From Pirellulales bacterium (GTDB taxonomy: Bacteria > Planctomycetota > Planctomycetia > Pirellulales > JADZDJ01): 64,000 bases of DNA. The translations under genes were made by a program, and so were the position numbers. The stretch is from the NCBI GenBank assembly GCA_035499655.1, contig DATJYL010000112.1, forward strand, positions 2,250-66,249. The letters run 5' to 3'. Below are positions 37,613 through 62,722 of this stretch, one piece after another. The notes under the pieces were generated by a model. That model made no database searches. It saw nothing but the letters and a program-made list of their open reading frames with translations, and was not told the origin of the DNA. Position 1 is the first letter of the stretch; the number at the start of each line of letters is the position of its first letter.

Positions 37613-38719
37613 ATGAAAAACCTAGTTTACGTTTTGCTGTTCACCGCAATGACCGCCATTTCTTGGGGAATTTACGGGCCATTATTGAGCATTGGCGGAA
37701 AACAAATGGGCGGCAGCCATTGGTTGCCGTTTGTATTTGTTGGCGTGGCATACTTCCTGATCGCGGTTTTAGCAACAACCGCTTTGCTGGTATGGCGAGG
37801 CGAACCTGGTAATTGGAATTCCCGCGGCATCATTTGGAGTTTTTTTGCAGGCGTGGTTACAGCCGTGGGCGCGCTCAGCTTGATTCTGGCGCTCACCAAC
37901 AAAGGCAATCCGATTTATGTGATGCCGCTCGTGTTTGGCGGAGCGCCGGTCGTTAACACGTTGCTGGCGATGTGGATTTCGAAAACCTATCGCGAGACGG
38001 GACCATTCTTTTACGCCGGATTAATTTTGGTAATTGCGGGCGCCGTGGCAGTCTTAGTCTTCAAACCTCACGAGATGGCGCCGGCCGCGCCTCTTCCAAC
38101 GGCTACTGCTGGGCAAGCAGTTCCCGCCTCAGAACCCAATGCTGCCACAGCGCAAGCAGCTGTCGCAAACACGGGTTCTGGATTTACGACTCTGCTGATT
38201 ATTTCCGCATTCATTGCGTTAACGGCAATTTGTTGGGGGTGTTATGGCCCGTTATTGCACAAGGGACAAACCTTTATGCACGGCAGCCGCATGCGACCCT
38301 TCATTTGCGTAGGAATGGCGTATGTTGTCGTGGGGATCGTTGCTCCTTTAGTTTTTTGGACCGCTCTGGGAGACCACGGCCAAATTTCTGCTCGCGGAGT
38401 GATCTGGAGTCTGGCAGGAGGAACCGCAGGCGCCGTCGGGTCGTTAGGCGTAATTCTAGCATTTACCTTCGGTGGCAAACCCATTTACGTTATGCCGCTG
38501 GTCTTTGGCGGCGCGCCAGTCGTGAATACATTCTTTAGCATCATCACGGCCCAGCAATTAAGCAGCATTTCGCCGTTTTTCTACGCCGGGCTGATTGTCG
38601 TGGTCGCCGGCGCGGTTAGCGTGCTGGTGTTTGCTCCGCACGGCGCCCCGCACCCGGCACCCGCCACCGAGACAAAACCGCCCGCCGCTCCCGCCACTCC
38701 CGAGCCGGCGAAACCGTAA
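37613..38719 (+). CDS. Integral membrane protein with an internally duplicated DMT/EamA-like unit
   Basis: Two repeats of WGxYGPLL...GxPIYVMPLVFGGAPVVNT...PFFYAGLI separated by an Ala/Pro/Thr linker. Confidence 0.8.
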   Translation: MKNLVYVLLFTAMTAISWGIYGPLLSIGGKQMGGSHWLPFVFVGVAYFLIAVLATTALLVWRGEPGNWNSRGIIWSFFAGVVTAVGALSLILALTNKGNPIYVMPLVFGGAPVVNTLLAMWISKTYRETGPFFYAGLILVIAGAVAVLVFKPHEMAPAAPLPTATAGQAVPASEPNAATAQAAVANTGSGFTTLLIISAFIALTAICWGCYGPLLHKGQTFMHGSRMRPFICVGMAYVVVGIVAPLVFWTALGDHGQISARGVIWSLAGGTAGAVGSLGVILAFTFGGKPIYVMPLVFGGAPVVNTFFSIITAQQLSSISPFFYAGLIVVVAGAVSVLVFAPHGAPHPAPATETKPPAAPATPEPAKP

Positions 38720-38823
38720 TGACCAAGATGAATTTCCAATGACCACACGAAGTGGCGGAGCTAAATCCCAATGACCAATGATTTGCTCCAACATTGGTCA
38801 TTGGTGCTTGGGCATTGGTTATT
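38718..38823. repeat. Inverted AATGACC-type heptamer arms between convergent genes
   Basis: aatgacc...aaatccc aatgacc aatga [tttgctccaa] cattgg tcattgg tgcttgg gcattgg ttatt. Confidence 0.9.
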
Positions 38824-38829
38824 TTTTCT

Positions 38830-39564
38830 TCACGTGCCGCGCACGTTGCCGAACCACTCGATGTGCTTTCGGGGGCAGAAATTCAACTGCTGCCGGCGGC
38901 AGTACGGTTCTAACCAGGTTGCGGTGTGCATGAGCGTTTCGACGTTTATTCCCTGCGGCATCAATAGCACGCGGGAGCGTTTGACTTGTGGAAATTCTTC
39001 CAGCCATGCTTCGGCGGCCAGGCAATCGTCGGGTGAATCGACCACGAATTTAATCTGATAGGGATACTCTGTCACCAATCGCCGTATGACGTCGGGCAAG
39101 TGCCGTGATTCTTCATGCCGCACATTCCAACGCGGTTCTTGAGATGCCGGCGGCGCGGAGCCGGCCAGCTTGGGACTGATCGACATCAAATCGCACTCCA
39201 GCGGCAAATACAGTGTGCCGGCCGTTTCCACCGTGATGTGCAGACCGCGCTGGCGCAAAGCCGCGGCCAGTGGCACCAGTTCGGCAAACAACATCGGCTC
39301 GCCGCCAGTCAGAACGACATGACCGCATTTATAATCTCCCTCTCCCTTTGGGAGAGGGTCGGGGTGAGGGTGTCCCAGCAATTCATCGACCTGTCGCAGA
39401 ATTTCCTCGACCGATAAATCTTCTCCTTCCGGCTCCCAGGAAGTGTATGGCGTATCGCAAAACCAGCACCGCAGGTTGCAACCGCTGGCGCGGACAAACA
39501 CGCTGGGCGTTCCGGTCAGAAAGCCCTCGCCTTGCAGCGATCGAAATATCTCGGCAATACGCAT
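38830..39564 (-). CDS. queE: 7-carboxy-7-deazaguanine synthase QueE (radical SAM) with an in-frame palindrome insertion
   Basis: MRIAEIFRSLQGEG, FVRASGCNLRCWFCDTPY, VVLTGGEP, VETAGT, SISPKL. Confidence 0.93.
   Translation of the reverse strand: MRIAEIFRSLQGEGFLTGTPSVFVRASGCNLRCWFCDTPYTSWEPEGEDLSVEEILRQVDELLGHPHPDPLPKGEGDYKCGHVVLTGGEPMLFAELVPLAAALRQRGLHITVETAGTLYLPLECDLMSISPKLAGSAPPASQEPRWNVRHEESRHLPDVIRRLVTEYPYQIKFVVDSPDDCLAAEAWLEEFPQVKRSRVLLMPQGINVETLMHTATWLEPYCRRQQLNFCPRKHIEWFGNVRGT
39338..39370. repeat. CCCTCTCCC-NNN-GGGAGAGGG REP-like hairpin in frame within queE
   Basis: ccctctccc ttt gggagaggg tcggggtgaggg; encodes PHPDPLPKGEG between DELLG and HVVLTGGEP. Confidence 0.8.
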
Positions 39565-39572
39565 GATGAAAG

Positions 39573-39656
39573 CAATTAGCGGCTGGCAATTAGCGATTAG
39601 CAACGGACGGTATCATTCATTTTCTGCGATTGGCTAGTTGCTAATTGCTAATTGCT
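39573..39656. repeat. Inverted CAATTAG-type heptamer arms between queC and queE
   Basis: caattag cggctgg caattag cgattag caa ... cgattgg ctagttg ctaattg ctaattg ct; supplies the queC stop (TAG 39648-39650). Confidence 0.85.
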
Positions 39657-40385
39657 GTATTCTAGTGGATCGGTCATTCCCGCTTCGGCAAAGCCTTTGC
39701 GGCGGAGCAAGCAAGCGTCGCAGCGGCCGCACGGCTTGCCACTTGCGTCGGGATCGTAACAACTGTATGTCAGACCGTAATCTACGCCTAATTGCGTGCC
39801 GCGGCGGATTATTTCCGCTTTGGTCATCGTAATCAGCGGCGTGTGAATTTTGAATTGCAGTGTCCCTTCCACGCCCGCCTTGGTAGCCAAATTCGCCAGC
39901 CGTTCGAACGCAGCAATATATTCCGGCCGGCAGTCGGGATAGCCGCTGTAATCGATGGCATTGACGCCCAGAAAAATGTCGGCCGCTTCCACCGTTTCGG
40001 CATACGCTAGCGCTAGCGACAACAGCACCGTGTTCCGCGCTGGCACATACGTCACTGGAATGCCGTGTCCCATTTCATCGGCGCTGCGTCCCTTGGGCAC
40101 GGCAATGTCCGCGGTTAGAGCGCTGTGGCCGAAACGAGCTAAATCGATTCGCACTGTTTCGTGCCGTTTTACTCCCAAGTGTTTTGCCACCCGAGCAGCC
40201 GCTTCCAGTTCGAACCGGTGCCGCTGGCCGTAATCGACCGACAGAGCAAACAGTTCGTATCCCTCTGACTTGGCCACGGCGGCTGTGGTCGTCGAATCTA
40301 GCCCGCCGGAGAGCAAAATGACGGCTGATTTTCCCCTTGATGGCGCATTCGGTGTGTTCGTTGTCGCGGAGGCTCTGGTTTCCAT
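39648..40385 (-). CDS. queC: 7-cyano-7-deazaguanine synthase QueC
   Basis: [50 protein letters not shown]. Confidence 0.97.
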
Positions 40386-40430
40386 CCTTCCATGTTGGCA
40401 CAATTAAAGTTTGAAGAAAAGGAGCTGCAC

Positions 40431-40790
40431 GTGCCCGACAATTTTCGCAACACGCTGGAAACCTTCGCCAACCAATATCCTGGGCGAGATTACAGCATTG
40501 AAATCATCTGCCCAGAGTTCACTTCCGTTTGCCCGAAAACCAGCCAGCCCGATTTCGGCACGCTAACTATCACGTACACGCCGGAAGCCAAATGCGTGGA
40601 ACTGAAAAGCCTGAAACTGTATTTGCAGCAGTTCCGCAACGAGGGAATTTTTTACGAAACGGTGACGAACCGCATTTTGGATGATTTGGTGGCGGTGCTT
40701 GCGCCGCGCCGCATGAAACTGGTGGCGGCTTTTACGCCGCGGGGTGGGATCAGCACGAATGTGATCGTGGAATTAAAATCTGATACATGA
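40431..40790 (+). CDS. queF: NADPH-dependent preQ0 reductase QueF (unimodular type)
   Basis: [42 protein letters not shown]; GTG with AAGGAG RBS. Confidence 0.95.
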
Positions 40791-40817
40791 ATCTGTAAAC
40801 GGCAATCCCTCGAGTCT

Positions 40818-41288
40818 TCAATATGTTCTGGCCGTCGGCAGCATTTTCCAATCGTGAAATAGTTGCTTGCACTCTGCGGACAGCACGCCGCCGATGAGTT
40901 TTACTTTGCTGCGGCCCAGCGATAGAATTTGCTGGGCGTCGATGTACAACTCGTTGAAGCCCGCATCGGCTGCGTCTTGGACGGTCGCGCCGAAGTAAAC
41001 CGTCTCTACTCGGGCCCAGTGCAAGGCTGACATGCACATCGGGCACGGCTCGCAGGTAGTGGCGACAATGCCCCCTTCCAGAAAAATTTTGCCCGTGTGT
41101 TTGCAGCCAGCCCGAATGGCGTTCACTTCGGCGTGGGCCGTGCTGTCGATGGTCGTCAGCACCGTGTTGTGCGCGGAGGCGATGACTTTTCCCCCCTGCT
41201 CAATCGCACAGCCAAACGGACTATTGCCCGTCTTAAAACCCTCGCGGGTTTTGTCGATCGCTAGCCGCATTAGGTCTTCTGGTGACAT
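40818..41288 (-). CDS. Nucleoside/guanine deaminase (zinc-dependent cytidine deaminase fold)
   Basis: SPFGCAI, TAHAEVNAIR, TCEPCPMCMSALHWAR, DAADAGF. Confidence 0.9.
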   Translation of the reverse strand: MSPEDLMRLAIDKTREGFKTGNSPFGCAIEQGGKVIASAHNTVLTTIDSTAHAEVNAIRAGCKHTGKIFLEGGIVATTCEPCPMCMSALHWARVETVYFGATVQDAADAGFNELYIDAQQILSLGRSKVKLIGGVLSAECKQLFHDWKMLPTARTY

Positions 41289-41387
41289 GCCGAAAGCTTA
41301 GCACATCGCCATTCGTTGTAGGAGGGGAAACCTTTCCCCGACTGCGAAGCGGTTGATTCCGTCGGCGAAGGGATTCGCCTCCTACAG

Positions 41388-41807
41388 CTACACGCAATAC
41401 GGCCGGAGTTTGCCGGCCACATTTTCCGGAATGGGAATTGATTGCAGCACGTTACCGGTCGCGGGCAACCGGCAACAAACGGCGGTCATGCTGCCGGTGG
41501 CCACAGGTCGCTCGTCATGCGACACTTCGAATTTGTACGTCACGCTTTTGTTTCCCAGTCGGGAAATGCTGAGCGTGATGGTGAGCACATCTTCAAAGCG
41601 CACCGCGCTTTGAAAATCGCACTGGGCATTGACGCGCGGCCAACTGAACGGGCCCGTATCATCTTTCGCCAGCACACTCAGCCCCAAGTGCCGCAAGAAT
41701 TCGTGCTCCACTGATTCCATCAGCGGAAAGAACGAGGCGAAGTGCATGATGCCCGCCGCATCGGTATCGCGAAATTCCACTCGGCGCGTGGCGGTGAAAG
41801 AAGGCAT
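41388..41807 (-). CDS. Acyl-CoA thioesterase (4-HBT / hot-dog family)
   Basis: RRVEFRDTDAAGIMHFASFF, CDFQSAVRFED, KSVTYKF. Confidence 0.88.
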   Translation of the reverse strand: MPSFTATRRVEFRDTDAAGIMHFASFFPLMESVEHEFLRHLGLSVLAKDDTGPFSWPRVNAQCDFQSAVRFEDVLTITLSISRLGNKSVTYKFEVSHDERPVATGSMTAVCCRLPATGNVLQSIPIPENVAGKLRPYCV

Positions 41808-41811
41808 AAAT

Positions 41812-41888
41812 GCAGAAGGCAGAAGGCAGAAGGCAGAAAACACCAAATCGTGCGTGCGATTCTGCTTTCTGCAGTCTGCCTTCTGCCT
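41812..41888. repeat. Inverted GCAGAAG-type heptamer arms between rpsR and the thioesterase gene
   Basis: gcagaag x3 gcagaaa ... ttctgct ttctgca gtctgcc ttctgcc. Confidence 0.9.
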
Positions 41889-41894
41889 TAAAAA

Positions 41895-42182
41895 CTACTC
41901 GCCCACGTACGGCAATAGCGCCATGAAGCGGGCCCGCTTCACCGCCAGGGTAATGGCATGTTGGCTGGCGGCGGTGCAACCGCTTTTGCGACGGCTGACA
42001 ATTTTTCCCTGGCGATTGGTGAGCTTGTTCAGCAGGTCCAAATCTTTGTAATCGACAAACAAGGGGCGCGGCCGCTTGCCATCGATGAAGATGGGGTCTT
42101 TTTTCTTAGTGCGGATTTTAGGCTTGGCCCGCTTCCGCAGGGGCATTTTCTTTTTGTCGCGAAAGGAACCAAATCGAGGCAT
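41895..42182 (-). CDS. rpsR: 30S ribosomal protein bS18 (no N-terminal CxxC)
   Basis: VDYKDLDLL..GKIVSRRKSGC..QHAITLAVKRARFMALLPY. Confidence 0.95.
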   Translation of the reverse strand: MPRFGSFRDKKKMPLRKRAKPKIRTKKKDPIFIDGKRPRPLFVDYKDLDLLNKLTNRQGKIVSRRKSGCTAASQHAITLAVKRARFMALLPYVGE

Positions 42183-42265
42183 AGGGACGAAGGAGTTGGG
42201 GTGTGAAATGAAACGACTTATGATACCGGTTTCCGCATTCAGAATCTAGCGGGGTCTTGTGGTTT

Positions 42266-42343
42266 CTAAAAGTCGAAAAGTCAAACGGGCGGATCGCCCC
42301 GCACCTCCGTCTTTTCGACTTTCAGACTTTTCGACTCTTGGAC
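42266..42343. repeat. Inverted octamer-array arms (GAAAAGTC type)
   Basis: ctaaaagt cgaaaagt caaa ... tcttttcg actttcag acttttcg actcttgg ac. Confidence 0.8.
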
Positions 42344-42364
42344 CTCTACAACGCCGCCCCACTC

Positions 42365-42407
42365 AAAACAATTCGCCCCCGGCGGGCAGTTTGCCAGCCG
42401 GGGGCGA
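42365..42407 (-). terminator. Probable intrinsic terminator after the RRM gene
   Basis: 11-bp stem tcgcccccggc/gccgggggcga with an adjacent A-rich tract (U-rich on the minus strand). Confidence 0.6.
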
Positions 42408-42477
42408 GGTGATGGTCAAGTTAACTCTCCGTCAACTGCCCTCACAAACAATTTGGCGATCAAGGCGCCAGACAAGC

Positions 42478-42792
42478 TTAGCGCCGGCCGTAACCGCCGC
42501 CGCCATAACCGCCACGGCCACCACCGCCACCGGCGGGGCGCGGGGTGCGTTCCCGCGCTTCGTTGACCGTTAGCGCACGGCCGCCCATGTCTTTGCCGTT
42601 CATGGCGGCAATGGCGGCATTCATCGCTTCATCGGATTCCATTTCGACAAACCCGAAACCGCGGGAGCGGCCGGTTTCGCGATCGGAAATCACTTCGGCA
42701 TTTTTCACGCCGCCGTGTTCTGCAAACATGTTTTGCAATTCCGAGGAAGTGGTTGACCAGGGAAGATTCCCAACATAAATCCGTCGACCCAT
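42478..42792 (-). CDS. RRM-domain RNA-binding protein with glycine-rich tail
   Basis: RNP2 IYVGNL, RNP1 RGFGFVEM, GRALTVNEA, GGGGGRGGYGGGGYGRR. Confidence 0.95.
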   Translation of the reverse strand: MGRRIYVGNLPWSTTSSELQNMFAEHGGVKNAEVISDRETGRSRGFGFVEMESDEAMNAAIAAMNGKDMGGRALTVNEARERTPRPAGGGGGRGGYGGGGYGRR

Positions 42793-43097
42793 CGAACACC
42801 TTCTACAAGGGAGCACACGAACTAAAACAGCACTTCTTCAAAACGAGACGTGAACTGAACCGAGGACGCCGTGGCTTGGCTCCCCGAGGGCCACAACGCC
42901 GCTTGACCGGCTATTGGAAGTGTAGCGTGCCCCTGGCGCAGGCCGCAATGTCTGTGAGGCAAAAAACAATCAAGAAGTCCGAAATTGCCGCCGGTGGTCT
43001 GGAGCGTTGACCGGGATGATTCGGCATAGCCCCTCCCTTTGGTAAGCCGCAAAGCATTGCCGGTTTTTGAGTTCGGCCACAACGCCGAATTTGGCGG

Positions 43098-44483
43098 CTA
43101 CCCCGCCGCGACAGCAACACGCTTTACCTCGCGGTACAATTCGCGGTGTTCTTGGGCCATTTGCAGGGCCGTGTATTGGGCGTGAATCACTTGCCGGCCG
43201 CGGCGTCCGTGTTCGGCAGCCAGCGCGGGATTCAAGATGTATTCGCGCAACTTGCGGGCCAGATCGCCGGCGTTTTCCGGCTCGCACAGCAGGCCGCCGC
43301 CGGTATGCTCGATGATTTCCGGGAACGAGCCATGCCGCGGCACGACGACCGGCACGCCGTTGGCCAGCGCTTCCAATACGGAAAGCCCCTTGCTTTCGCG
43401 ATATACCGTGGGCACGCTCATCACGTCGAGCGATTGCAAAAAGGCAATTTTTCCGGCGCGATCCAATTCGCCCGCATATTCAAAATGGTCGGCCAAATTT
43501 AACTCTTGCACGCGCTGCAGGATGGATTGAAAATACGGTTCGTCGCCGGACGATTTGTAACCGGCGGCCTTCAAACGCAGCCGGGGCACAGCCCCGTCAG
43601 CACCATCAGCCCGCAGCAATGCAAACGCTTCGACCAGCAGATGCAACCCCTTTTCCGGAGCGATGCGAGAAAAGAAGCCGATGGTAAACGGCTCGTCTGC
43701 TTGGCTGCCACGGCGTTGACCGTGCCCGGCCAAATGCAGCCCGTGGCGGATGACTTCGATGCGATTATGTGGAACGCTTAAATAATCGGCCATGAAGTCG
43801 GCGAAGTAGCGGTTGTACGCCACGAACACATCGACATCGCGCGCCCGCTGGCGCAACAGCTCGCGCGCCTGGCTGTAGTGCGGTTCGGACAATTGCTCCA
43901 GGAACAAATCCTCGCCCGCCAATCCGCAGATGATGGGCACGTTCAGCCGCTCGCGGAGCCGGCGCGCCATGCCCAGCAAGAGCGCGTTGGAAAGATGAAT
44001 CACCTGTGGCCGGCCTTCCTGTTCCAGCCACGAAGCCAGCTTTTCGAGTTCTTTTCGTTGCCGGCCTTGTTCGCCCTGCAGCGTGGAAATAGTGAGGGCG
44101 CCCAATTTAGCCACCGGCATGCCGGCGCTGCGCGCGGCCAGCCAGTTGAGCAGCTTGGGGGAATCGAGCCAGCGATCTAAGAACCAGGGTGTGTGTCGAA
44201 ACAGTGACGAGTTTTGCTGCAAGTAAACATTCACGCCGCCAAAAAAAACGCGGTTCAGGCTGACATTTTCTTCATCGGTGCGCAGCGGCGTATAGGTAGG
44301 CACCAGCAAAACATCCTCGCCCAAATCCGCCAGTGCTTTAGCCAAGGCGTTGTCGTGCAAGCAGGAACCGCAATAGCGCGTGGCGGCCCCCGCGGTGAGA
44401 TACACAATCCGCAACGGTGAACCATCGCTGTATCGAGCTGACGCTTCGGGAATTTTGGCCATAGAACTGGTCTGTAGCGCCAT
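43098..44483 (-). CDS. Glycosyltransferase family 4 (GT-B)
   Basis: YCGSCLHDNAL, GFFSRIAPEKGLH, ESKGLSVLEALANGVPVV; start uncertain (possibly TTG 44414). Confidence 0.9.
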   Translation of the reverse strand: MALQTSSMAKIPEASARYSDGSPLRIVYLTAGAATRYCGSCLHDNALAKALADLGEDVLLVPTYTPLRTDEENVSLNRVFFGGVNVYLQQNSSLFRHTPWFLDRWLDSPKLLNWLAARSAGMPVAKLGALTISTLQGEQGRQRKELEKLASWLEQEGRPQVIHLSNALLLGMARRLRERLNVPIICGLAGEDLFLEQLSEPHYSQARELLRQRARDVDVFVAYNRYFADFMADYLSVPHNRIEVIRHGLHLAGHGQRRGSQADEPFTIGFFSRIAPEKGLHLLVEAFALLRADGADGAVPRLRLKAAGYKSSGDEPYFQSILQRVQELNLADHFEYAGELDRAGKIAFLQSLDVMSVPTVYRESKGLSVLEALANGVPVVVPRHGSFPEIIEHTGGGLLCEPENAGDLARKLREYILNPALAAEHGRRGRQVIHAQYTALQMAQEHRELYREVKRVAVAAG

Positions 44484-44491
44484 AAGGCAAG

Positions 44492-44516
44492 CGCCGGGCT
44501 AGCCCGGCGGCTAAAC
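44492..44516. repeat. 18-bp palindrome plus GCTAAAC tail (REP-like)
   Basis: cgccgggct|agcccggcg followed by gctaaac. Confidence 0.65.
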
Positions 44517-45176: not shown

Positions 45177-45198
45177 GAGTCCAATCCGGAATTCCGGC

Positions 45199-47879: not shown

Positions 47880-47955
47880 GCTGTGTCAGCTCCTCTCGCT
47901 CTCCCGGCGCGTCGGGATTGCGGCTAAACATCACAACTTCACACAGCCAACATGG

Positions 47956-51481: not shown

Positions 51482-51491
51482 AATTCGATTG

Positions 51492-54781: not shown

Positions 54782-54831
54782 CGGACAAGCTGTTGTCGCG
54801 CAGGAAAGTGATGAATCCATCCGCTGGCGGT

Positions 54832-56301: not shown

Positions 56302-57191
56302 GACGATACGGTTTCCCACTTCGATGCGGCGGATGGCGGTGTCGGTCGCGCCAGCAGTGCGCCGGCAGCGATGCGTGCTTTTTCCCACGGGCTAAGCCGA
56401 ATGCGGCGGCGGAACACGTCGGCGGGGCGGCGCTTAATTTTCGCCAGCACGGCGCGGTAGGTGGCCGTCATCGCGCGGAACACGCGCTGGCCGTCGCGCT
56501 GGAGCAAGGGTTCGAGTTCAGCGGCCGCGGCATAAAATTGTTCAGCCCGAGTGATTTCGAATTGCATGAGATTAAAAAACGGGGAGTTATCGTTGGAGCC
56601 GCGGAGTTGTTGGGCAGTGTAACCGAAGCGGTGCAAATCTTCCTGCGGCAAATAGAGGCGGCCGCGCTGGGAGTCTTCGCGGAGGTCGCGCAGAATATTC
56701 GTGAGCTGGAATGCCACGCCGCAGCGGCGGGCCGGCTCCAGCGCCGCCGGACTGCGAAACCCCCAGATGTGAATGCACGCCAATCCGACGACTGACGCCA
56801 CACAATAGCAGTATTGCTCCAAATCGGCGAAAGTTTCGTAACGGCGGCCGGCGAGGTCCATTTCGACGCCGTCGATGGCGGCGGTGAGATACTCCAACGG
56901 AATGCGGTAGCGAGCGGCGGTATCGACAAGCGCGGGAAGGATAAGATTGGCCGTGCAGTTGGAAGACGGCCGTTGCAGGCTTGCTCGTAATTCGATCAGT
57001 GCGGCGTGCCGGGCGGCAACGTCGCGGCGATCGTCGTCGGCCAGATCATCCACGTGGCGCAAATAGGCGTACAGGGCGCACATGGCCCGACGCTTGGCCC
57101 GCGGCAGCAGCAAAAACGAGTAATAAAAGTTCGAGGCAGACTTTCGCGCCAGCCGTTGGCAGAAGGCGTAACTGGCGGCAAGTGAGTTCAC
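56298..57191 (-). CDS. hpnD: Presqualene diphosphate synthase HpnD
   Basis: ASNFYYSF, YAYLRHVDDLADD, YCYCVASVVG, FQLTNILRDLRED, GRLYLPQED; GTGA overlap with hpnC. Confidence 0.9.
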   Translation of the reverse strand: MNSLAASYAFCQRLARKSASNFYYSFLLLPRAKRRAMCALYAYLRHVDDLADDDRRDVAARHAALIELRASLQRPSSNCTANLILPALVDTAARYRIPLEYLTAAIDGVEMDLAGRRYETFADLEQYCYCVASVVGLACIHIWGFRSPAALEPARRCGVAFQLTNILRDLREDSQRGRLYLPQEDLHRFGYTAQQLRGSNDNSPFFNLMQFEITRAEQFYAAAAELEPLLQRDGQRVFRAMTATYRAVLAKIKRRPADVFRRRIRLSPWEKARIAAGALLARPTPPSAASKWETVSS

Positions 57192-58135
57192 GGCCGCGCC
57201 TCCGACGATGGCGGATTTGCAATCCGCCGCCTTACAAGGCATGCGCCCAACAGCAGATTGAGCTTTTTCCACTTGCCTACTACCGGCCGGGTGTGCCACA
57301 CGTTGTAATCAAGTTTTCGAATGGCCTGCAAAATCGCCCGCCCGCCATCGATGAACAATTGCACGCTGATTCGCAAACTGGGCGGAACCTGCGCCACCAG
57401 CGGCTGGCCGGCGTCGAAGAACGCTTCTGCCCGCGCAACCTCGCCGGCTAGCAACTCGCGAAATTGCGGATTGAACTCGCCGCGGGCGAACATAGCTTCT
57501 GGGTAACCCGCGCGGCGACAACTTTCTTGCGGCAGGTAAATGCGGCCGATGCGGTAATCGCGGGCCACGTCTTGCCAAAAATTCGCCAGTTGCAGGCCGG
57601 TGCAAATAGAATCGGCTAGCAGGCCGCGGGACTCGTCGTGGCAGCGGCCCAAATACAGCACCAGCCGGCCCACGGGATTGGCGGAATTGCGGCAGTAAGC
57701 CAGCAGATCGTCAAAAGTTTCGTATCGCGTGCAAGTTTGATCTTGCTTGAAGGCGATCAGCAAACTGCGAAACGGCTCAATGGGAATTTCAAACCCGCGA
57801 ATAGTTTCCGCCAAGGCCACGAACACGGGATGGCTGGCCACGCCGCGATAACAATCGTCGAGTTGCGATTGCCACCAATCCAGCAGCAGCAAACTTTGCT
57901 GGCCGCCAGCGGTTTCATCGGCCAGGTCGTCCGACCAGCGGCAATAGGCGTAGATATTGCAAAAATGTTGGCGCAGTTGCGCCGGCAACAACCAACTGGC
58001 GACCGTGAAGTTTTCGTAATGACATCGGGCCAAGCGGCGGCAATACGTTTGCGCTGCGGCCAACGTGGGACACGGCTGCGCAGCGGGGCCCGGTCCGTAA
58101 AGCGCAAGTTCGTCAGGGAACGAAATTTGAGACAT
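57188..58135 (-). CDS. hpnC: Squalene synthase HpnC
   Basis: HYENFTVASWLLP, YAYCRWSDDLADE, YCRNSANPVGRL, LQLANFWQD. Confidence 0.95.
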   Translation of the reverse strand: MSQISFPDELALYGPGPAAQPCPTLAAAQTYCRRLARCHYENFTVASWLLPAQLRQHFCNIYAYCRWSDDLADETAGGQQSLLLLDWWQSQLDDCYRGVASHPVFVALAETIRGFEIPIEPFRSLLIAFKQDQTCTRYETFDDLLAYCRNSANPVGRLVLYLGRCHDESRGLLADSICTGLQLANFWQDVARDYRIGRIYLPQESCRRAGYPEAMFARGEFNPQFRELLAGEVARAEAFFDAGQPLVAQVPPSLRISVQLFIDGGRAILQAIRKLDYNVWHTRPVVGKWKKLNLLLGACLVRRRIANPPSSEARP

Positions 58136-58248
58136 GCTGCGTGCTAGCGGTTTGCCGAAACTGCCTATCCGGGAAGTGGGCGGCACATTATGATAACGCA
58201 TAGCGGCGTGGGAAGCATCGTTGTTCCAGACGAAAGAATCGTCATCTG

Positions 58249-59190
58249 ATGAAAATTATTCTGGCCAGTCCGCGCGGGTTTTGTGCGGGCGTGAACATGG
58301 CGATCGACACGTTGGAAAAATCGCTGGGCATTTTTGGCGCGCCGGTGTACGTCTATCATGAAATTGTGCACAACAAGCACGTCGTGGAGCGGTTTCGCGC
58401 GGAAGGGGCCGTCTTCGTGGACGATTTGCACGAAGTGCCCGAGGGGGCGAATTTGCTGTTTTCGGCCCACGGTGTCTCGCCGGAAGTGCGGCGTGTGGCT
58501 CAGGAGCGGCGGCTGAATACCATCGACGCCACGTGCCCGCTAGTGACCAAAGTGCATTTGGAAGCGGTGCGGTATGCGAAGCAAGGTTACAAAATCATCT
58601 TGGTGGGCCATGCCGGGCATGACGAAGTGATCGGCACTATGGGGGAAGCGCCCGATGCGTTTTATTTGGTTGGGACGGCCGAGGAGGTCGACGGATTGGA
58701 ATTTCCATCCAAAACCAAGCTGGCGTATCTCACGCAAACAACGCTCTCGGTCGACGACGCCAACCGCATCATTAAGCGGCTGAAGGAAAAGTTCCCGCAC
58801 ATCATTGGGCCGCCCAAGGAAGATATTTGCTACGCCACACAGAACCGGCAGGAGGCAGTGCGGCAGTTATCGTCCGAGGCCAACGTAGTGCTGGTAATTG
58901 GCAGCCAGAACAGCTCCAACAGCTTGCGGCTGGCGGAGCTGGCGTCCGAAACCGGCACGCCCGCTTATTTGATCGACGGCCCGCCGGACATCGAATTATC
59001 CTGGTTCCAGCCGGACTCGACGGTGCTCATTACCGCCGGCGCCAGCGCGCCGGAAACGGTGGTGCAGCAGTGCATCGAATTACTGAAACGGCACTTCGGC
59101 GCCACGGTGGAAGAACGCACGCTGCGCGAGGAGCAAGTGTTCTTTGCGCTACCGAAAGAATTGCGCGTACTGACGGGCGTAGAAAGATAA
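58249..59190 (+). CDS. ispH: 4-hydroxy-3-methylbut-2-enyl diphosphate reductase IspH
   Basis: PRGFCAGV, EIVHN, FSAHGV, DATCPLV, QTTLS, ICYATQNRQ, NSSNS, TAGASAPE. Confidence 0.98.
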   Translation: MKIILASPRGFCAGVNMAIDTLEKSLGIFGAPVYVYHEIVHNKHVVERFRAEGAVFVDDLHEVPEGANLLFSAHGVSPEVRRVAQERRLNTIDATCPLVTKVHLEAVRYAKQGYKIILVGHAGHDEVIGTMGEAPDAFYLVGTAEEVDGLEFPSKTKLAYLTQTTLSVDDANRIIKRLKEKFPHIIGPPKEDICYATQNRQEAVRQLSSEANVVLVIGSQNSSNSLRLAELASETGTPAYLIDGPPDIELSWFQPDSTVLITAGASAPETVVQQCIELLKRHFGATVEERTLREEQVFFALPKELRVLTGVER

Positions 59191-59242
59191 TGACCAATGA
59201 CCAAGTCGCAATGACCAGAAAATCATTGGTCATTGGTGCTTG
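59189..59242. repeat. Inverted AATGACC-type heptamer arms after ispH
   Basis: aatgacc aatgacc aagtcgc aatgacc [agaaaa] tcattgg tcattgg tgcttg. Confidence 0.9.
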
Positions 59243-59258
59243 TTGATTCGGGCTTTTC

Positions 59259-59696
59259 TTACCCGTGGATGTAGCTTTTCAGGTAATGGTTTTCCATCGT
59301 CAGTTGGTCATGCTGGTGTTTGACCAAGTCGCCGATGGACACAATGCCTGCCAGTTTTCCTTCGTCGTCGATGACCGGCAAGTGACGAATGCGGCGGTCG
59401 GTCATCACGCCCATGGCGTCTTGCACGCTGTCGTTGGGCGAGCAAGTGGCTAAATCAGCCGTCATTACGTCTTCCACACGAAGTTGCTCCAGCGGAGCCC
59501 GATGGATGGCGCAGGCTTTAAGGATATCGCGCTCGGTGATAATGCCCAGCAAGTGGCTGCAATCGTTTTCCTCGCAGACCACGAGTGAACCGCAATTGTT
59601 TTTGACCAGCTTTTGCACGACGTCGGCCAGCGTAGCATGGGGCGAAATGCTTAACACGCGGGAGCCTTTGTGCTGCAGAATTTGCGCAAGCGACAT
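59259..59696 (-). CDS. CBS-domain-pair protein
   Basis: LLGIITERDIL, RIRHLPVID..GKLAGIVSIGDLVK; start trimmed to ATG 59696. Confidence 0.92.
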   Translation of the reverse strand: MSLAQILQHKGSRVLSISPHATLADVVQKLVKNNCGSLVVCEENDCSHLLGIITERDILKACAIHRAPLEQLRVEDVMTADLATCSPNDSVQDAMGVMTDRRIRHLPVIDDEGKLAGIVSIGDLVKHQHDQLTMENHYLKSYIHG

Positions 59697-59914
59697 AACA
59701 ATTCCTCGCTTTCCTGACCCAGATAAGAAATGCTGACCAGAAATGGCAGCCTCTTCTTTCAGCGCAGCCATGTTGAGTTGCCGCGCGCCGCTCCCATTAC
59801 AAGCATAGAAGGAAAAGGAGCGGGCAGTCAAAGCGATTTTTTTGAAAATGGAAGTTTGTAGATGCAGGAATTGGAATGCGCTGAGACTGTGAAAAAAATC
59901 ACGAACGGGAAGAG

Positions 59915-60013
59915 AATGACCAATGACCAAATCCCAATGACCAATATGCGGTTCAATCCAGCTAGGGCATTGCCGCTTAATCATTGGTCATTGGTGCTTG
60001 GGCATTGGTCATT
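59915..60013. repeat. Inverted AATGACC-type heptamer arms with a ~35-bp spacer
   Basis: aatgacc aatgacc aaatccc aatgacc aat ... tcattgg tcattgg tgcttgg gcattgg tcatt; the right arm shares 27 identical bp with 38792-38818. Confidence 0.92.
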
Positions 60014-60392
60014 GTGTTGTGCGGATCACCAATCGCACATCACCAATGGGGCTTCCCAGTGGTTCTTCAGGATCGATAATATAAACCGATGCAGATGGCG
60101 GCGGCTGCGCAACCGCAGAGTGCGGATCGACCGACACCATCAGCTCATTGGCGGGCTTTAGCAGCGGGGTAATGTCGGCCGAAAAGAATTGCCCCGGTTC
60201 AAGCCGGCCCAAATTCGTGCCGTTTAGCGAAATTTCGCCCAAAAAAATCCCCCGATCTACTTCCAGCGACACCCGCTCCCAGGTGTCCAAGCCCGTGGGG
60301 CATTTGAATCGCCGGCGATATGCCACTCGCCCCGGCGAGGCGTCAGGCAACTCTTCCCACGGCTGCCGCAGGCGAATCGGGTGGGGAATCAT
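60009..60392 (-). CDS. Small protein resembling the galactose-binding/sugar-binding module of GH2 enzymes
   Basis: IRLRQPW..VAYRRRFKCPTGL..EISLNGTNLG..DITPLLKPANELMV; stop TGA lies inside a repeat arm. Confidence 0.65.
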   Translation of the reverse strand: MIPHPIRLRQPWEELPDASPGRVAYRRRFKCPTGLDTWERVSLEVDRGIFLGEISLNGTNLGRLEPGQFFSADITPLLKPANELMVSVDPHSAVAQPPPSASVYIIDPEEPLGSPIGDVRLVIRTTQ

Positions 60393-60406
60393 GGGGAAGA
60401 CGGGAG

Positions 60407-60531
60407 GATGAAGGCAGAAGGCGGAAGGCGGAAGGGGGAACCCGGATAAGGCAGACGCAGGATTGAGGTGAAACACCTGGACGAAAACAGAACGCTATGC
60501 GTTTTACATTCTGCTTTCTGCCTTCTGCCTT
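60407..60531. repeat. Inverted GCAGAAG/GCGGAAG-type heptamer arms with a ~70-bp spacer
   Basis: gatgaag gcagaag gcggaag gcggaag ... ttctgct ttctgcc ttctgcc. Confidence 0.85.
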
Positions 60532-60533
60532 TT

Positions 60534-62201
60534 CTACTGCGGCACGAACGATTCGACCACACTAATTTCGTGTGTCTGGCGGCTGTCAGGCTCGTAGCAA
60601 CGGATGGTCACTTTGACGCCCCGCAGCGCAACAGGGTAGGGGGGCGAAGTTTCTGTGTTGTTGGCAAAATCTTGGAAGCCGGAGGCCGCCTGGTCGACGA
60701 CGCCATTGCCGTCTTGATCCAGGCCATCGTGTTCGTAATAAGTCGACCAGGTGTCGAATGTGGCGGGCGTGTAGCCATACAATCCATAATCAGGCAGATT
60801 GCTGGTTAAATGATCGTCGAAGAGCCAGTTCTTGGTAAAGTCGGTCGGCGCTGCCGGTCCAGCGGATGGACTCGCGGCCACTAATTGCGACTTGGGATAT
60901 CCGGTGGAGTAGAACGGGCTCATATTCTGCGTGCTGCAATCGGCCAGCGCCAAAAGCGGAATGGAGCCGTTGTTGACGCCCGCCACATTCTTCCCGCATG
61001 GTCCCACGGCATTCGCTGTCGTCGTTGTGGCGAGAGTAATGTACGAGCTATACAAATTGTTGGTTGCCGCCCAATTCAAATCGACAAAGGCGCCCGCGGC
61101 ATCTGCAGTCGGATAAATATACAAGGACACTGGCGATATGGGCGTCGTCTTCAACTGCCCTGGTATTTTGGTAAACCCAAAATCGCCTGGCGCCACCGTT
61201 ACCTGACTGGGCGATGTGCCCTGCAAATACACCGGCGCAGTGGGGTCCCACACTTGCACATCGAACGAAATGACATTTGTCAGCACGACATCTTGCCCAA
61301 AGCGGGCATTGCTTGTGTCAACGGTGTAAGTGCCGTTCGACAAACTGCCGCCTAGCGGAACCAAATAAGGCGGATAAACACGGTGCGGAAAACCGTTCGA
61401 CGAAGCCGCGTTATTAACAAACGCATGGCCGAAGCGGCATTCGCGGTTCGTCAAATCGCCCAGGGTGTTGGCCACGGCGACGGGCGTGCCTGTGGATTCG
61501 TCGATGTGGGCTGAAATATCGTTGTTTTGATAGAACGTGCTCACGGGCATTTGCAGGCCGGCGGTTGTCGTCGGCGCGGCGCCGGTCAGCACGGTTTGAT
61601 TGCCCTGATAGGTCGGCATCACCAAAAACACGCGGCGGTACAGCGTGAACATCGGCGGGTTGACTGGCGTGACGCCGTCGGACAGGAGCGTTGGCCGGAG
61701 GAACCAGACCACTTCGGCGACTTGCGATTGCACGGTTTGCGTTTTGCCGGTGGTGTCGGTATATAGTCCAGTAAATGGCACATCCTTGCTACGGACGGTG
61801 AACATTAGCACGTCGTCGGTGTCGCCCATCGGGTAGACGGTGTTCGGCGTGGCGGTGGTATCGGTCAGGTTGTAGGTGGCCGAGGCGGAATAGCCGGTGA
61901 GGCCCGGGTTCTGATCGCTGAGCGGGCCTTCGATAATTTCAAAATATCCGCCCCCGGCCGCCGGATCTTGCCAGGGAAGCATGTTGCACGTGTGGCCGGC
62001 TAAATCGGTCCGCAACCGCCCGGCCGCGCTTTGCATGCGGTTGGTCAGCTCGATCATCGAGCGGGCATCGCCGATGCGGCCGCCGACGTCGCTAAACAAC
62101 TGCGTGTAAGCGAACATCAGCAAAATGACGCACACCAGCGAAATCAGCATTTCGACCAGCGTAAGGCCCTGACGACAACGGTGGCTTCGTTGTACTGGCA
62201 T
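60534..62201 (-). CDS. Large prepilin-type (type IV pilin / pseudopilin) protein
   Basis: Class III signal RQG|LTLVEMLISLVCVILL with E5; long T/N/P-rich beta-type body; start uncertain (62201 or 62249). Confidence 0.85.
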   Translation of the reverse strand: MPVQRSHRCRQGLTLVEMLISLVCVILLMFAYTQLFSDVGGRIGDARSMIELTNRMQSAAGRLRTDLAGHTCNMLPWQDPAAGGGYFEIIEGPLSDQNPGLTGYSASATYNLTDTTATPNTVYPMGDTDDVLMFTVRSKDVPFTGLYTDTTGKTQTVQSQVAEVVWFLRPTLLSDGVTPVNPPMFTLYRRVFLVMPTYQGNQTVLTGAAPTTTAGLQMPVSTFYQNNDISAHIDESTGTPVAVANTLGDLTNRECRFGHAFVNNAASSNGFPHRVYPPYLVPLGGSLSNGTYTVDTSNARFGQDVVLTNVISFDVQVWDPTAPVYLQGTSPSQVTVAPGDFGFTKIPGQLKTTPISPVSLYIYPTADAAGAFVDLNWAATNNLYSSYITLATTTTANAVGPCGKNVAGVNNGSIPLLALADCSTQNMSPFYSTGYPKSQLVAASPSAGPAAPTDFTKNWLFDDHLTSNLPDYGLYGYTPATFDTWSTYYEHDGLDQDGNGVVDQAASGFQDFANNTETSPPYPVALRGVKVTIRCYEPDSRQTHEISVVESFVPQ

Positions 62202-62366
62202 GGCGCGCAGAAAGCGGGCAAGGAAATTTGCGGGGGGGCAAGTGTGCATCGCTTCTCCAATCCGGCGGACCATAAGCCCCTATTGAATGGCCGAAAGTTC
62301 CGATTCATGGCCGCGTGCTGCCCTAGATCAATTCCACACCGAATCACGGCAAAAGTCAAGCAGGAA

Positions 62367-62433
62367 AGGGTTCAGGGTGTAGGACACAGGGGGCAGGGAA
62401 ACCCCGCAACCATTCGCCGAACCCTGAACCCTA
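62367..62433. repeat. Inverted AGGGTTC-type heptamer arms
   Basis: agggttc agggtgt aggacac agggggc ... gaaccct gaaccct. Confidence 0.7.
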
Positions 62434-62435
62434 AT

Positions 62436-62597
62436 CTATTGCCCGGCGGCCGGCGCCGGCTGCGTGGGCCGATTGGCCGGGACATTCGGAATTGGCCCGC
62501 CTGGATCGCCTTTCAATTGGAACCAGACGAGGGCCGCAACCGCCAATACGACCAGTGCAAAAAACCAATGCCGATGTTTGTGCAGAAAATGATACAT
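62436..62597 (-). CDS. Putative 53-aa single-TM small protein
   Basis: MYHFLHKHRH-WFFALVVLAVAALVWF-QLKGDPGG + Pro-rich tail; co-directional with terC and the pilin gene. Confidence 0.45.
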   Translation of the reverse strand: MYHFLHKHRHWFFALVVLAVAALVWFQLKGDPGGPIPNVPANRPTQPAPAAGQ

Positions 62598-62643
62598 GGG
62601 GTCCAGTGTGGATTGATGAGGGTGGTGAGACGGATTACATCTG

Positions 62644-62722
62644 AATGACCAATGTCCAAGCACCAATGACCAATCTGAAAATGCATCGCGCATTGGTCAT
62701 TGTGGCTTTGTCATTGGTCATT
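62644..62722. repeat. Inverted AATGACC-type heptamer arms overlapping the terC stop
   Basis: aatgacc aatgtcc aagcacc aatgacc aat ... gcattgg tcattgt ggctttg tcattgg tcatt. Confidence 0.9.

Follow-up and report, generated by a model that had tools for sequence, protein, structure and literature searches.

The AATGACC hairpins scattered through the genome of an uncultured Pirellulales bacterium (a 4.5-Mb MAG with ~60 of them) are probably the gene-less miniature form of cassettes in which a PF05635 four-helix-bundle (4HB) gene lies between inverted heptamer arrays, and the family looks like a tie between the unexplained heptamer repeats of bacteria and one specific gene family. The stretch of DNA analysed here (the window; 64,000 nt) contains four such hairpins, together with the adjoining genes and arrays of related flavour:

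6148..6189, + strand: six-unit AATGACG/AATGCCT array, a solo arm of related flavour
11704..12219, + strand: PF05635 four-helix-bundle gene (C112:13953-14468), a gene-bearing relative of another flavour
16005..16044, no strand assigned: AATGACG-flavour mini-hairpin (C112:18272), AATGACG-AATGACG-AATCCCGGCGCGCCGGGATT-CGTCAT, with the palindrome TCCCGGCGCGCCGGGA at its apex
20194..20221, − strand: four-unit array GGTCATT-CGTCATT-AGACATT-CGTCATT, a solo arm of related flavour
38718..38823, no strand assigned: site 1 hairpin element, between convergent ORFs and followed by a T-run
38830..39603, − strand: radical-SAM gene, the convergent partner, ending 7 nt past the site 1 right arm
58249..59190, + strand: ispH (LytB) gene, its TAA stop formed by a flanking T and the first two bases of the site 2 arm
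59189..59248, no strand assigned: site 2 hairpin element, occupying the whole spacer between the convergent ispH and CBS genes
59915..60013, no strand assigned: site 3 hairpin element, canonical form with a 39-nt spacer
60009..60476, − strand: hypothetical gene, its TGA stop (60009-60011) within the outermost GGTCATT unit of site 3
62644..62722, no strand assigned: site 4 hairpin element, two G-type arms and a 19-nt spacer
62711..63724, − strand: TerC-family gene; the site 4 right arm encodes its final N-D-Q codons and TGA stop

Inspection of each site found the inverted AATGACC-heptamer arms at all four, just as the original prediction had described them. At site 1 the left arm (38718-38781) runs from AATGACC..AATGACC through an 18-nt insert (ACACGAAGTGGCGGAGCT) to AAATCCC-AATGACC-AATGA and, after a spacer at 38782-38791, the right arm (38792-38823) reads CATT-GGTCATT-GGTGCTT-GGGCATT-GGTTATT. 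Site 2 consists of AATGACC-AATGACC-AAGTCGC-AATGACC-AG, a 7-nt loop and TT-GGTCATT-GGTGCTT-GTTGATT. Site 3 has an A-type arm on the left (AATGACC-AATGACC-AAATCCC-AATGACC) and a G-type arm on the right (GGTCATT-GGTGCTT-GGGCATT-GGTCATT), and site 4 has AATGACC-AATGTCC-AAGCACC-AATGACC and GGTCATT-GTGGCTT-TGTCATT-GGTCATT on either side of its 19-nt spacer. The 27-bp identity predicted between sites 1 and 3 was recovered exactly, with two copies of the 27-mer CATTGGTCATTGGTGCTTGGGCATTGG in the window (38792 and 59982), and the left arm of site 4, said to be the site 3 arm in reverse complement, differs from the reverse complement of the site 3 right arm by one base over the first 30 nt. The spacers also vary in length and sequence as claimed, being 7–39 nt long and mutually unrelated, and none of the four elements contains an ORF. 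Matches to CCAATGACCAATG with at most one mismatch number eight in the window versus 0.12 expected from shuffles, and those to AATGACC 23 versus 8.4, with none of 100 shuffles equalling the observed count for either. All four sites are predicted to fold as RNA hairpins (−21 to −49 kcal/mol, z −3.1 to −6.7 versus shuffles; −37.6 kcal/mol, z −3.5 at site 1 and −49.4 kcal/mol, z −6.7 at site 3).

The genome-wide copy count that had been proposed as a check amply bore out a dispersed family, with ~100 arms in 62 clusters, and AATGACCAATGACC, with 47 copies, is within the ten commonest 14-mers of the genome. Period-7 tandem repeats are over-represented (890 arrays, falling into 336 canonical flavours), with AATGACC leading at 96 arrays. 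The canonical element comprises a left half AATGACC-AATGACC-AAATCCC-AATGACC-AATGA, a variable spacer of 7–60 nt and a right half TCATT-GGTCATT-GGTGCTT-GGTCATT-GGTCATT. Its arms are asymmetric, with AAATCCC in one and the complement of AAGCACC in the other, which confers polarity on the element and places a conserved mismatch block within the ~30-bp stem. An AAATCCC arm is paired with an AAGCACC-type arm in 25 of 28 clean pairs, the same A/G pairing holds in G004, G005, G007 and G009, and, of the 71 pairs that could be classified in other genomes, 48 conform to it. Over 95 copies and 30 columns, 83% of stem cells are paired; columns 17/48 and 19/46 are unpaired in 72 and 63 copies respectively, and pairing elsewhere in the inner 23 bp is ~78–100% per column. 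An intrinsic (Rho-independent) terminator, defined by a G+C-rich stem with a U-tract directly after it, was considered as an identity for the hairpins and rejected.

Gene-bearing elements of the same architecture occur alongside these hairpins. Every one of the eight PF05635 4HB (23S rRNA IVS-protein/Avd-like) genes in this genome (G000) has inverted heptamer arrays on its two sides, and gaps between inverted arrays are bimodal in length (74 at ≤120 bp, 2 at 121–300 bp and 14 at 301–700 bp). The window's own example, at 11704..12219, lies between GAGTGCG-type and ACTCCGC-type inverted arrays, the cassette being inserted with a stop codon of the preceding gene on one side and the ATG of the following gene on the other. 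The sole gene-bearing element with AATGACC arms, C127:7836-8414, has canonical arms (A-type versus GGAGCTT) enclosing a gene for a PF05635 4HB protein, with the start codon inside the innermost heptamer. At the orthologous TPR→yebC site, G005 and G009 carry this same cassette, G002 has a gene-less remnant (AATGACC...GGTCATT-GGGATTT) followed by homologous flank, and seven other genomes have an empty spacer of 20–25 nt. A cassette with the same arms and a deletion remnant at an orthologous site give the gene-less hairpins a concrete candidate origin, and the direction of the event at TPR→yebC, loss or gain, would be assigned by parsimony over this patchy distribution. The 4HB ORF is C-terminally truncated in C127 and contains an in-frame TAG in G009. 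With ~60 gene-less copies versus one or two cognate cassettes in the genome, gene loss in situ is by itself insufficient as an explanation. Moreover, no C127-type 4HB gene was detectable in G002 and G007, both rich in hairpins, so that any dependence of the hairpins on the 4HB protein is putative. The genome has an rnc (RNase III) gene, and no reverse transcriptase gene was found in it. To our knowledge, the large and widespread PF05635 4HB family has no known function outside the DGR Avd proteins and no known catalytic activity.

The outermost heptamers mark the exact limits of each copy. Similarity between the paralogues C26:17496 and C141:51323 starts at the outermost AATGACC and ends at the outermost GGTCATT, the sequences past these points being unrelated, and neither their flanks nor those of ~28 well-defined pairs contain a target-site duplication. 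All-against-all comparison of ~70 spacers yielded 13 pairs scoring at least 11 versus one in the shuffled set, around half of the 13 being arm sequence caught in spacer extraction, and about three real shared-spacer families were left after discounting it. These shared spacers point to copying of whole units between loci, as the original prediction had inferred, and their presence in few copies implies either that most copies are old or that the spacer is not carried by copying. Copies persist for long at orthologous sites, yet they are also gained, lost and flipped. Thirteen of 20 elements in the sister species G002 lie at orthologous sites in G000, where flanking genes are 70–85% identical and spacers unalignable, and the other seven are in G002 only, so that the presence/absence polymorphism that had been anticipated is found between species. 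The element at C62:17988 is inverted as a whole relative to its flanks when compared with L098, with a spacer ~80% conserved; site 1 has an ortholog of flipped polarity in the sister species (L108), and site 3 one of opposite polarity in L014 and an empty site in L015/G004. At site 2, three other genera with the ispH–CBS gene order intact (L014, L015, L022) lack an element. The documented dynamics of the hairpins thereby comprise prolonged retention in place, gain, loss and inversion, and local copying. Neither this positional persistence nor the link to heptamer-bracketed 4HB cassettes had figured in the original prediction.

We propose that cassettes would lose their gene through deletion between the arms and so leave gene-less hairpins, and that insertions would be tolerated with the arms paired into a ~30-bp stem and the insert looped out of the host transcript, much as in an rRNA intervening sequence whose stem is yet to be cut by RNase III. 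A transposase-independent, hairpin-based route, during which the 4HB protein may read the heptamers, may give rise to new copies, and polarity flips would come about when the two arms recombine. Any host benefit, for example in 3′-end RNA structure, would be secondary, and the arms may have been conserved by host selection instead of selfish maintenance. Binding of heptamers by 4HB, cutting of the stem by RNase III and movement of the element become experimentally testable.

The elements occupy a particular niche, with 57 of 62 clusters intergenic, versus 83% coding sequence across the genome, and only 4 of 55 elements in divergent spacers, though these make up 27% of intergenic bases. Their median distance from the upstream stop codon is ~16 nt and about one third overlap it; the arm met by the incoming gene reads AATGACC in either orientation and within three units places a TGA in each reading frame, and hairpins supply stop codons and C-terminal residues to adjoining genes. 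This adjacency to stop codons and scarcity in divergent promoter regions would suit host-selected 3′-end RNA elements (mRNA stabilisers, RNase III processing sites or terminators) whose likeness to cassette arms is secondary, as would the stable predicted stems, the encoded RNase III and the arms that stay recognizable at the 13 of 20 orthologous sites where spacers and flanks have diverged past alignment. Nonetheless, such an origin appears unlikely, since the hairpins have no U-tract after them (TTTT within 10 nt on only 10% of transcript-downstream sides, with a T fraction of 0.31 on these and 0.32 on the other sides), and they occur in both polarities relative to transcription (11 against 5, not significant). 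Their conserved mismatch block makes the stem weaker, not stronger, no Rfam family was matched by them, presence/absence differences at conserved gene pairs are clean and an identical 23-mer occurs in unrelated phyla.

The MITE and REP likenesses suggested in the original prediction did not withstand closer comparison. REPs are defined as 20–40 bp imperfect palindromes with a GTAG or CGTC tag at one end (PMC3733652), and REP/REPIN elements moved in trans by RAYT (Y1 HUH transposase) resemble the hairpins in being extragenic imperfect palindromes of high copy number that cause no target duplication. The conserved mismatch could mark one strand, some outer units read CGTCATT, CGTC included, and the genome has six Y1_Tnp-like genes (PF01797 matches). 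Next to these Y1 genes, however, lie other GC-rich hairpins (GGCCCAAAGGGCC, CCCAGGCC..GGCCTGGG and GCCCCAACGGGGC) and no AATGACC arms, the consensus arm AATGACC-AATGACC-AAATCCC-AATGACC has neither GTAG nor CGTC, the latter appearing only in some degenerate outer AATGACG units, polarity is interleaved along the complete G004 chromosome with no obvious strand bias, and the gene-bearing relative encodes 4HB and not RAYT, all of which makes a RAYT-driven origin very improbable. Classical MITEs, that is, internally deleted DDE-transposase ISs spreading by cut-and-paste or copy-and-paste, would account for terminal inverted repeats, small size, many copies and presence/absence polymorphism, yet we give this origin hardly any credence: target-site duplications were found at 0 of ~28 well-defined copies and not at the paralogous pair, no IS with AATGACC ends was found, the sole gene-bearing element (C127) encodes a 4HB protein, spacers are unrelated in most copies and copies persist for long at orthologous sites. 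Equally slight is the chance that independent local heptamer slippage and inverted duplication produced microsatellites with no common ancestry. The many over-represented flavours of period-7 arrays and their variable lengths, including a 7-fold AATGACCAAATCCC tandem array in G004, are in line with slippage, but it already conflicts with the unit order, which is conserved as a non-repetitive series of four units with A/G asymmetry at dozens of loci in several genera and phyla, as well as with the identical 27-mer at two window sites and the spacers common to paralogous loci. Ordered copying rather than slippage, as initially argued, is what the data support, the same unit order being present at ~60 loci here and in five other genomes of the family, with the 23-mer in other phyla.

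Beyond this genome, the combination of a gene with inverted heptamer arms is a design general across phyla. Around 20 of 30 PF05635 loci in Pirellulales have a heptamer bracket, and of 77 proteins related to the C127 type (Planctomycetota, Verrucomicrobiota and others), 31 have genes flanked on each side by two or more AATG[AT]C[CGT]-type units (antisense control, 0 of 77). In three Nostocales genomes all ten PF05635 genes lie between inverted heptamer arrays, GGGGACT/CCCCAGT included, and the gene-plus-arms design is also present in CPR bacteria. The exact 23-mer arm, now shown to be common to unrelated phyla, was recovered from at least 120 contigs (GC 0.38–0.70), whose many phyla include Chloroflexota, NC10, CPR and Omnitrophota.

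STRR of heterocystous cyanobacteria, which had been named as an analogue, are likewise dispersed and mostly intergenic tandem heptamers with several flavours per genome, whereas the host here belongs to Planctomycetota (ispH and the genes beside it assign the window to uncultured Pirellulales) and the arrays are inverted pairs of fixed unit order and polarity. The analogy is borne out by the STRR-type arrays of Nostocales, which bracket the same PF05635 gene family; the present elements connect heptamer repeats with this family in a new phylum. STRR and their kin have served in cyanobacterial strain typing since about 1990, and we know of no function, origin or partner for these heptamer repeats. 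CCCCAGT, which as a triple tandem has matches in many Nostocales genomes, is presumably the STRR1 unit, and a tandem GGTCATT array reads as a TTGGTCA unit, which we take to be STRR2 (Mazel et al. 1990). Our literature search found no earlier link of STRR-type heptamers to a gene cassette.

Among other known systems, the ORF-bearing 23S rRNA IVS (Coxiella burnetii S23p IVS, PMC4990558) is likewise a small selfish insert with inverted ends that form a stem, and IVS stems are RNase III substrates (PMC4990558). Both it and the elements described here have gene-bearing copies with a PF05635/S23p 4HB ORF prone to decay, and both combine horizontal acquisition with subsequent vertical retention. Unlike the IVS, the elements here reside in protein-gene operons and 3′ intergenic spacers, with copies all between protein-coding genes and none within a 23S rRNA helix; their arms are arrays of 7-base units, and the four window copies have no ORF. 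Leptospira provides a further case of an ORF-bearing 23S rRNA IVS. REP/BIME/REPIN with RAYT (PMC3116915, PMC3733652) share an extragenic location in transcribed 3′ regions, imperfect palindromes, high copy number, no target duplication and a position partly conserved between species, but the arms here are untagged ~30-nt heptamer arrays with no RAYT between them. MITEs (Correia elements; Nezha of cyanobacteria) are also short and non-coding, have terminal inverted repeats and far outnumber a gene-bearing relative, whereas our elements have no target-site duplication, transposase parent or, mostly, common internal sequence. The TAACTGA repeats of Beggiatoaceae, cyanobacteria and Bacteroidetes (PMC4679880) parallel AATGACC as one heptamer in distant phyla that is intergenic, docks on start or stop codons and is suspected of horizontal spread. 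TAACTGA forms direct arrays upstream of start codons, whereas AATGACC forms inverted pairs downstream of stop codons. We know of no mechanism for either.

A bolder and distinctly more tentative proposal is that the AATGACC and STRR-type hairpins might be non-autonomous miniatures of an undescribed pan-bacterial class of mobile elements composed only of a 4HB gene and inverted heptamer arrays. In such a class, the 4HB protein would read its own flavour, the A/G mismatch block would mark the strand or site of transposase-free hairpin copying, and 23S rRNA IVS would be copies that landed in rRNA.

Short-read assemblies break at these hairpins, at gene ends, and MAG pipelines should mask or annotate them.

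Reading all four window sites (sites 1–4, at 38718–38823, 59189–59248, 59915–60013 and 62644–62722) bore out the original prediction of inverted AATGACC arms, with AATGACC-type units on the left and complementary GGTCATT units on the right flanking a short unrelated spacer. The 27 bp said to be identical in sites 1 and 3 (CATTGGTCATTGGTGCTTGGGCATTGG) do occur in the window at 38792 and 59982 only, and, as claimed, the left arm of site 4 repeats the right arm of site 3 in reverse complement, one base off in the first 30 nt. The 13-mer CCAATGACCAATG (≤1 mismatch) was found eight times against 0.12 expected, and the AATGACC heptamer 23 times against 8.4 expected. RNA folding predicted a single long hairpin at each site, at −21 to −49 kcal/mol with z-scores of −3.1 to −6.7.

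The genome assembly (4.54 Mb in 244 contigs; window at C112:2250–66249, C-numbers being contigs) belongs to a host that flanking genes place among uncultured Pirellulales, and the only public run containing the window is a wetland metagenome. A genome-wide count yielded the many further copies foreseen for a dispersed family, with a total of ~100 arms in 62 clusters (each with at least two 9-mer hits), and the 14-mer AATGACCAATGACC, with 47 copies, is within the genome's ten commonest 14-mers. Alignment of 28 clean pairs gave the canonical left arm AATGAC(C/G)-AATGACC-AAATCCC-AATGACC-AATGA and, after a spacer of 7–60 nt, the canonical right arm TCATT-GGTCATT-GGTGCTT-GGTCATT-GGTCATT. Since one arm carries AAATCCC (A-type) and the other the complement of AAGCAC(C/G) (G-type) in 25 of the 28 pairs, the element has a polarity, and both polarities were present among them. 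This A/G asymmetry is preferred rather than obligatory, because, of the 71 pairs that could be classified in other genomes, 23 are perfectly complementary A/A pairs.

Base pairing extended to 83% of stem cells in a set of 95 non-identical pairs drawn from our genome and others. Columns 17/48 and 19/46 were unpaired in 72 and 63 copies, respectively, and column 18/47 was a U-G wobble in 64; as judged from the aligned arms, columns 17–19/46–48 are a conserved mismatch block within the ~30-bp stem. Compensatory change between arms was modest and mainly in the outer unit (42 cells changed on both sides versus 27.9 ± 4.3 in shuffles that ignore the relatedness of copies). In a complete relative (G004, OY970289.1; C1:680621–680713), the two-unit block AATGACCAAATCCC occurs in about seven tandem copies, and arm units can thus also expand by slippage with a 14-nt period.

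Gene calls came from a crude home-made caller, in which stops are exact and starts over-extended. In this 83% coding genome, 57 of the 62 clusters are intergenic, with 36 in tandem, 15 in convergent and 4 in divergent contexts, divergent spacers making up 27% of intergenic bases. Elements abut the upstream gene, at a median of ~16 nt from its stop codon, and about one in three overlaps that codon: site 2 contributes its first two bases to the ispH stop, the 60009–60476 gene stops within the outermost unit of site 3, and site 4 supplies the last three codons and stop of a TerC gene. Such overlap arises because AATGACC includes TGA and, 7 not being a multiple of 3, three units stop every frame. 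Whichever the orientation, the arm facing an incoming gene reads AATGACC; A/G polarity relative to the direction of transcription, at 11 to 5, was not significant. The site 3 hairpin is inserted ~10 nt past a motif, CTGTGAAAAAAATCAC(G/A)A, at window positions 59888–59905 upstream of a CBS-domain gene. This motif, which resembles a CRP/FNR-type TGTGA-N6-TCACA operator, is kept in three genera and duplicated in one (also at L014:4593–4610 and L015:4647–4690, loci from other genomes). Another G-type arm, CGTCATT-GGTCATT-GGTCATT-GGTGCTT-GGTCATT, lies at C115:27503–27545, 65–105 nt upstream of the start codon of rnc (RNase III); a search for its partner arm found none and, the arm being solo, we draw no inference of rnc autoregulation.

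Within the family-level group, 6 of 11 genomes are rich in the A-type 23-mer, which is all but missing from 30 other families in the order. When the flanks of 20 elements from a congeneric sister species (G002) were mapped onto our genome, 13 lay at orthologous sites, window site 1 included, where flanking coding DNA is only 70–85% identical and spacers and outer non-coding flanks are unalignable. The other seven are present in G002 only, and one such site has a heptamer of another sequence type (flavour) in our genome; at C95:4985, a copy of GCTAAACCGCAAGCG stands where G002 (L106) has an AATGACC hairpin. Site 2 is absent in three other genera that retain the ispH-CBS gene order; at site 3, one genus has an element of opposite polarity and another has none. 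The expected presence/absence variation, tested between species and genera, was therefore found. At the population level, the sole DNA run with the window, used as contigs, is interrupted at the repeats and offered no joints that were informative, and a scan of a single metagenome recovered only the same population, at 99.95% identity. Orthologous elements are often opposite in polarity, and a comparison of C62:17988 with L098 shows the entire element, its ~80% conserved spacer included, inverted relative to the flanking genes, which we read as a probable flip via recombination between arms. Spacers are mostly unique, with three real spacer families (C26 and C141 within our genome; L093, L098 and C62:18018; and two G002-only elements 1.8 kb apart), indicating that whole-unit copying occurs, at least locally, and supporting the view of the arms as copied elements.

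The family lacks the defining properties of DDE-type MITEs, REP/REPINs and intrinsic terminators, because there is no target duplication, the flanks of Y1 transposase genes differ and there is no U-tract. No target-site duplication, as would be expected for a MITE, was visible at any copy; the shared-spacer paralogues C26:17496 and C141:51323 are similar over precisely the stretch bounded by the outermost AATGACC and the outermost GGTCATT, with unrelated sequence on either side, and their boundaries show no duplication either. Mobilisation by RAYTs (Y1 transposases linked to REPs) was rejected on reading the flanks of all six Y1_Tnp genes, which bear other GC-rich hairpins. Hence, the MITE/REP assignment does not hold in the strict sense, while the two other parts of the first interpretation, copied elements and the analogy with STRRs (the heptanucleotide repeats of cyanobacteria), stand. 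Reverse transcriptase as mobiliser found no candidate, PF00078 having no match in the genome; an intrinsic terminator was rejected on U-tract statistics, which revealed no U-tract after the stem; and Rfam returned no family match, only chance miRNA-precursor hairpins far under gathering scores. Three RAYT-like Y1 genes of ~150 aa (C73:4631–5146, C179:11363–12094 and C141:23831–24295) and their flanking GC-rich REP-type hairpins (GGCCCAAAGGGCC, CCCAGGCC-N-GGCCTGGG, GCCCCAACGGGGC and CCGGAGGACCGG) are a classical REP system of this genome that is distinct from the AATGACC family.

A different association emerged with PF05635 (23S_rRNA_IVP) genes, which encode four-helix-bundle (4HB) proteins. 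All eight in this genome lie between inverted heptamer arrays, as cassettes with a different flavour in each, in a slot running from the stop of one gene to the ATG of the next. Gaps between inverted arrays are bimodal, with 74 hairpins at ≤120 bp, 2 at 121–300 bp and 14, the cassettes, at 301–700 bp. One cassette has canonical AATGACC arms:

C127:7836–8414, 4HB cassette with canonical AATGACC arms, A-type innermost on the left and GGAGCTT on the right

Its ORF begins in the innermost heptamer (ATG ACC AAT GAA, M-T-N-E), as in relatives, and the C127-type cassette is also present at the orthologous TPR→yebC site in two related genomes, G005 and G009. There, G002 has a short gene-less AATGACC...GGTCATT-GGGATTT hairpin followed by the homologous downstream flank, and seven other genomes have a bare 20–25 nt spacer. 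By parsimony, the G002 hairpin would be a deletion derivative of the cassette, and thus a direct precedent for the gene-less form. The AATGACC-flanked 4HB genes at C127:7946–8293 and G009:C20:547631–547978 seem to be decaying, the former without the last ~15 or more residues of its relatives and the latter with an in-frame TAG (the G005 orthologue is intact), which parallels the reductive evolution reported for the ORF of the Coxiella 23S rRNA intervening sequence (IVS).

Heptamer-bracketed 4HB genes extend well beyond this family. In other Pirellulales families, ~20 of 30 PF05635 loci have a heptamer bracket; 4HB subfamilies in one genome carry distinct flavours, and the pairing of subfamily and flavour is kept across families. 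The YRIS(V/I)CKRE subfamily has AATGAC(C/G)/AATGTC(G/T) arms, and four families share one orthologous site of this kind; (A/G)ATTGCA arms go with the ICLKELRE subfamily and AAGGCGG arms with a further one. One 4HB cassette with AATGACG/AATGTCG arms (L155, G018:C90:23700–24900, from another Pirellulales family) apparently lies inside a ribosomal-protein operon, between rplP and rpmC, its flanks having been read by eye. Relatives of the C127-type protein (48–65% identical) occur in Planctomycetota, Verrucomicrobiota, Lentisphaerae, many CPR lineages and others; counting AATG[AT]C[CGT]-type and AATGCC[TG] units, 31 of 77 have at least two upstream with complementary units downstream (0/77 in the antisense control), CPR relatives having AT-rich arms instead. 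Luteolibacter marinus NBU1238, a cultured strain, also carries a cassette (L353). In three Nostocales genomes, 10 of 10 PF05635 genes lie between inverted heptamer arrays, including GGGGACT/CCCCAGT, which we take to be STRR1, and it is here that the STRR analogy holds. The exact 23-mer AATGACCAAATCCCAATGACCAA, with ~0.02 occurrences expected by chance in a 596-Gb collection, was on at least 120 contigs, mostly as hairpins, from Chloroflexota, Methylomirabilota, several CPR groups, Omnitrophota, Phycisphaerae, KSB1 and others, with GC of 0.38–0.70. Our search of the literature on heptamer repeats and PF05635 found no description of a link between them. PF05635 is related to DGR Avd proteins and the IVS-encoded S23p (PMC10053308), and the Coxiella IVS is a selfish 428-nt element excised by RNase III (PMC4990558).

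We propose that the AATGACC hairpins belong to the 4HB-cassette class, as foldback elements whose gene has been lost, and rate them as combining the STRR and IVS families. Deletion between arms would produce the miniatures, and polarity would flip via arm-to-arm recombination. Pairing of the arms in the transcript, and possibly also in ssDNA, may loop out the insert and make it tolerated, much as the IVS stem pairs before the RNase III cut; an rnc gene is present in the genome. Selection would keep elements out of promoter regions, and new copies may arise by a hairpin-based route without transposase, possibly involving the 4HB protein. A weak point is the ratio of gene-less copies to cognate cassettes, about 60 to 1 or 2. 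Strict dependence of the hairpins on the cognate gene is unsupported, as no C127-type 4HB gene was detectable in G002 or in a relative, G007, though both have hairpins. Host-level selection for RNA structure at 3′ ends is a serious rival, though one that could act alongside a cassette origin. Through the cassette link, heptamer hairpins without a gene gain an origin, and a long-standing puzzle can be tested.

Smaller modules are nested in these and other repeats of the genome, whose other dispersed families include GCTAAACCGCAAGC (~60 copies), ATAAAGCCGCGACCGTTGGTCGCG (~40–50) and AATTTGAACATAGCCCGACTGTGTCAGTCGGGAAA (~40). A 16–18 nt palindrome, (A/G)TCCCGGCGCGCCGGGA(T/C), whose core CCGGCGCGCCGG has 70 copies genome-wide, occurs in the window at 16023–16034 and 6281–6292 and elsewhere, for example, at C26:17583, C62:18058, C141:24357 and C179:42888. 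Many unrelated palindromic repeats have it at their apex or close by: heptamer arms, where it takes the place of the variable unit, a GTAG-tagged ATGTAGCGGCC...CCACTACAT family, the CCCAGGCC hairpins adjoining RAYT genes and a ATAAAGCCG...CGGTCGCG family. Its presence varies between paralogues (C26 versus C141) and orthologues (our genome versus G002), and it behaves like a very small nested hairpin-seeking insert. The second module nested in arms, (C)ACACGAAGTGGCGGAGCT(A), of ~18–20 nt, separates AATGACC from AAATCCC as an insert in several left arms, at site 1 (window 38745–38762) and at C141:32640, C152:4955, C26:28670 and C66:15490. At C26:5679–5850, a truncated second tRNA-Asn-like copy lies beside an intact tRNA-Asn(GTT), and the TCCCGGCGCGCCGGGA palindrome sits in the anticodon stem of the truncated copy.
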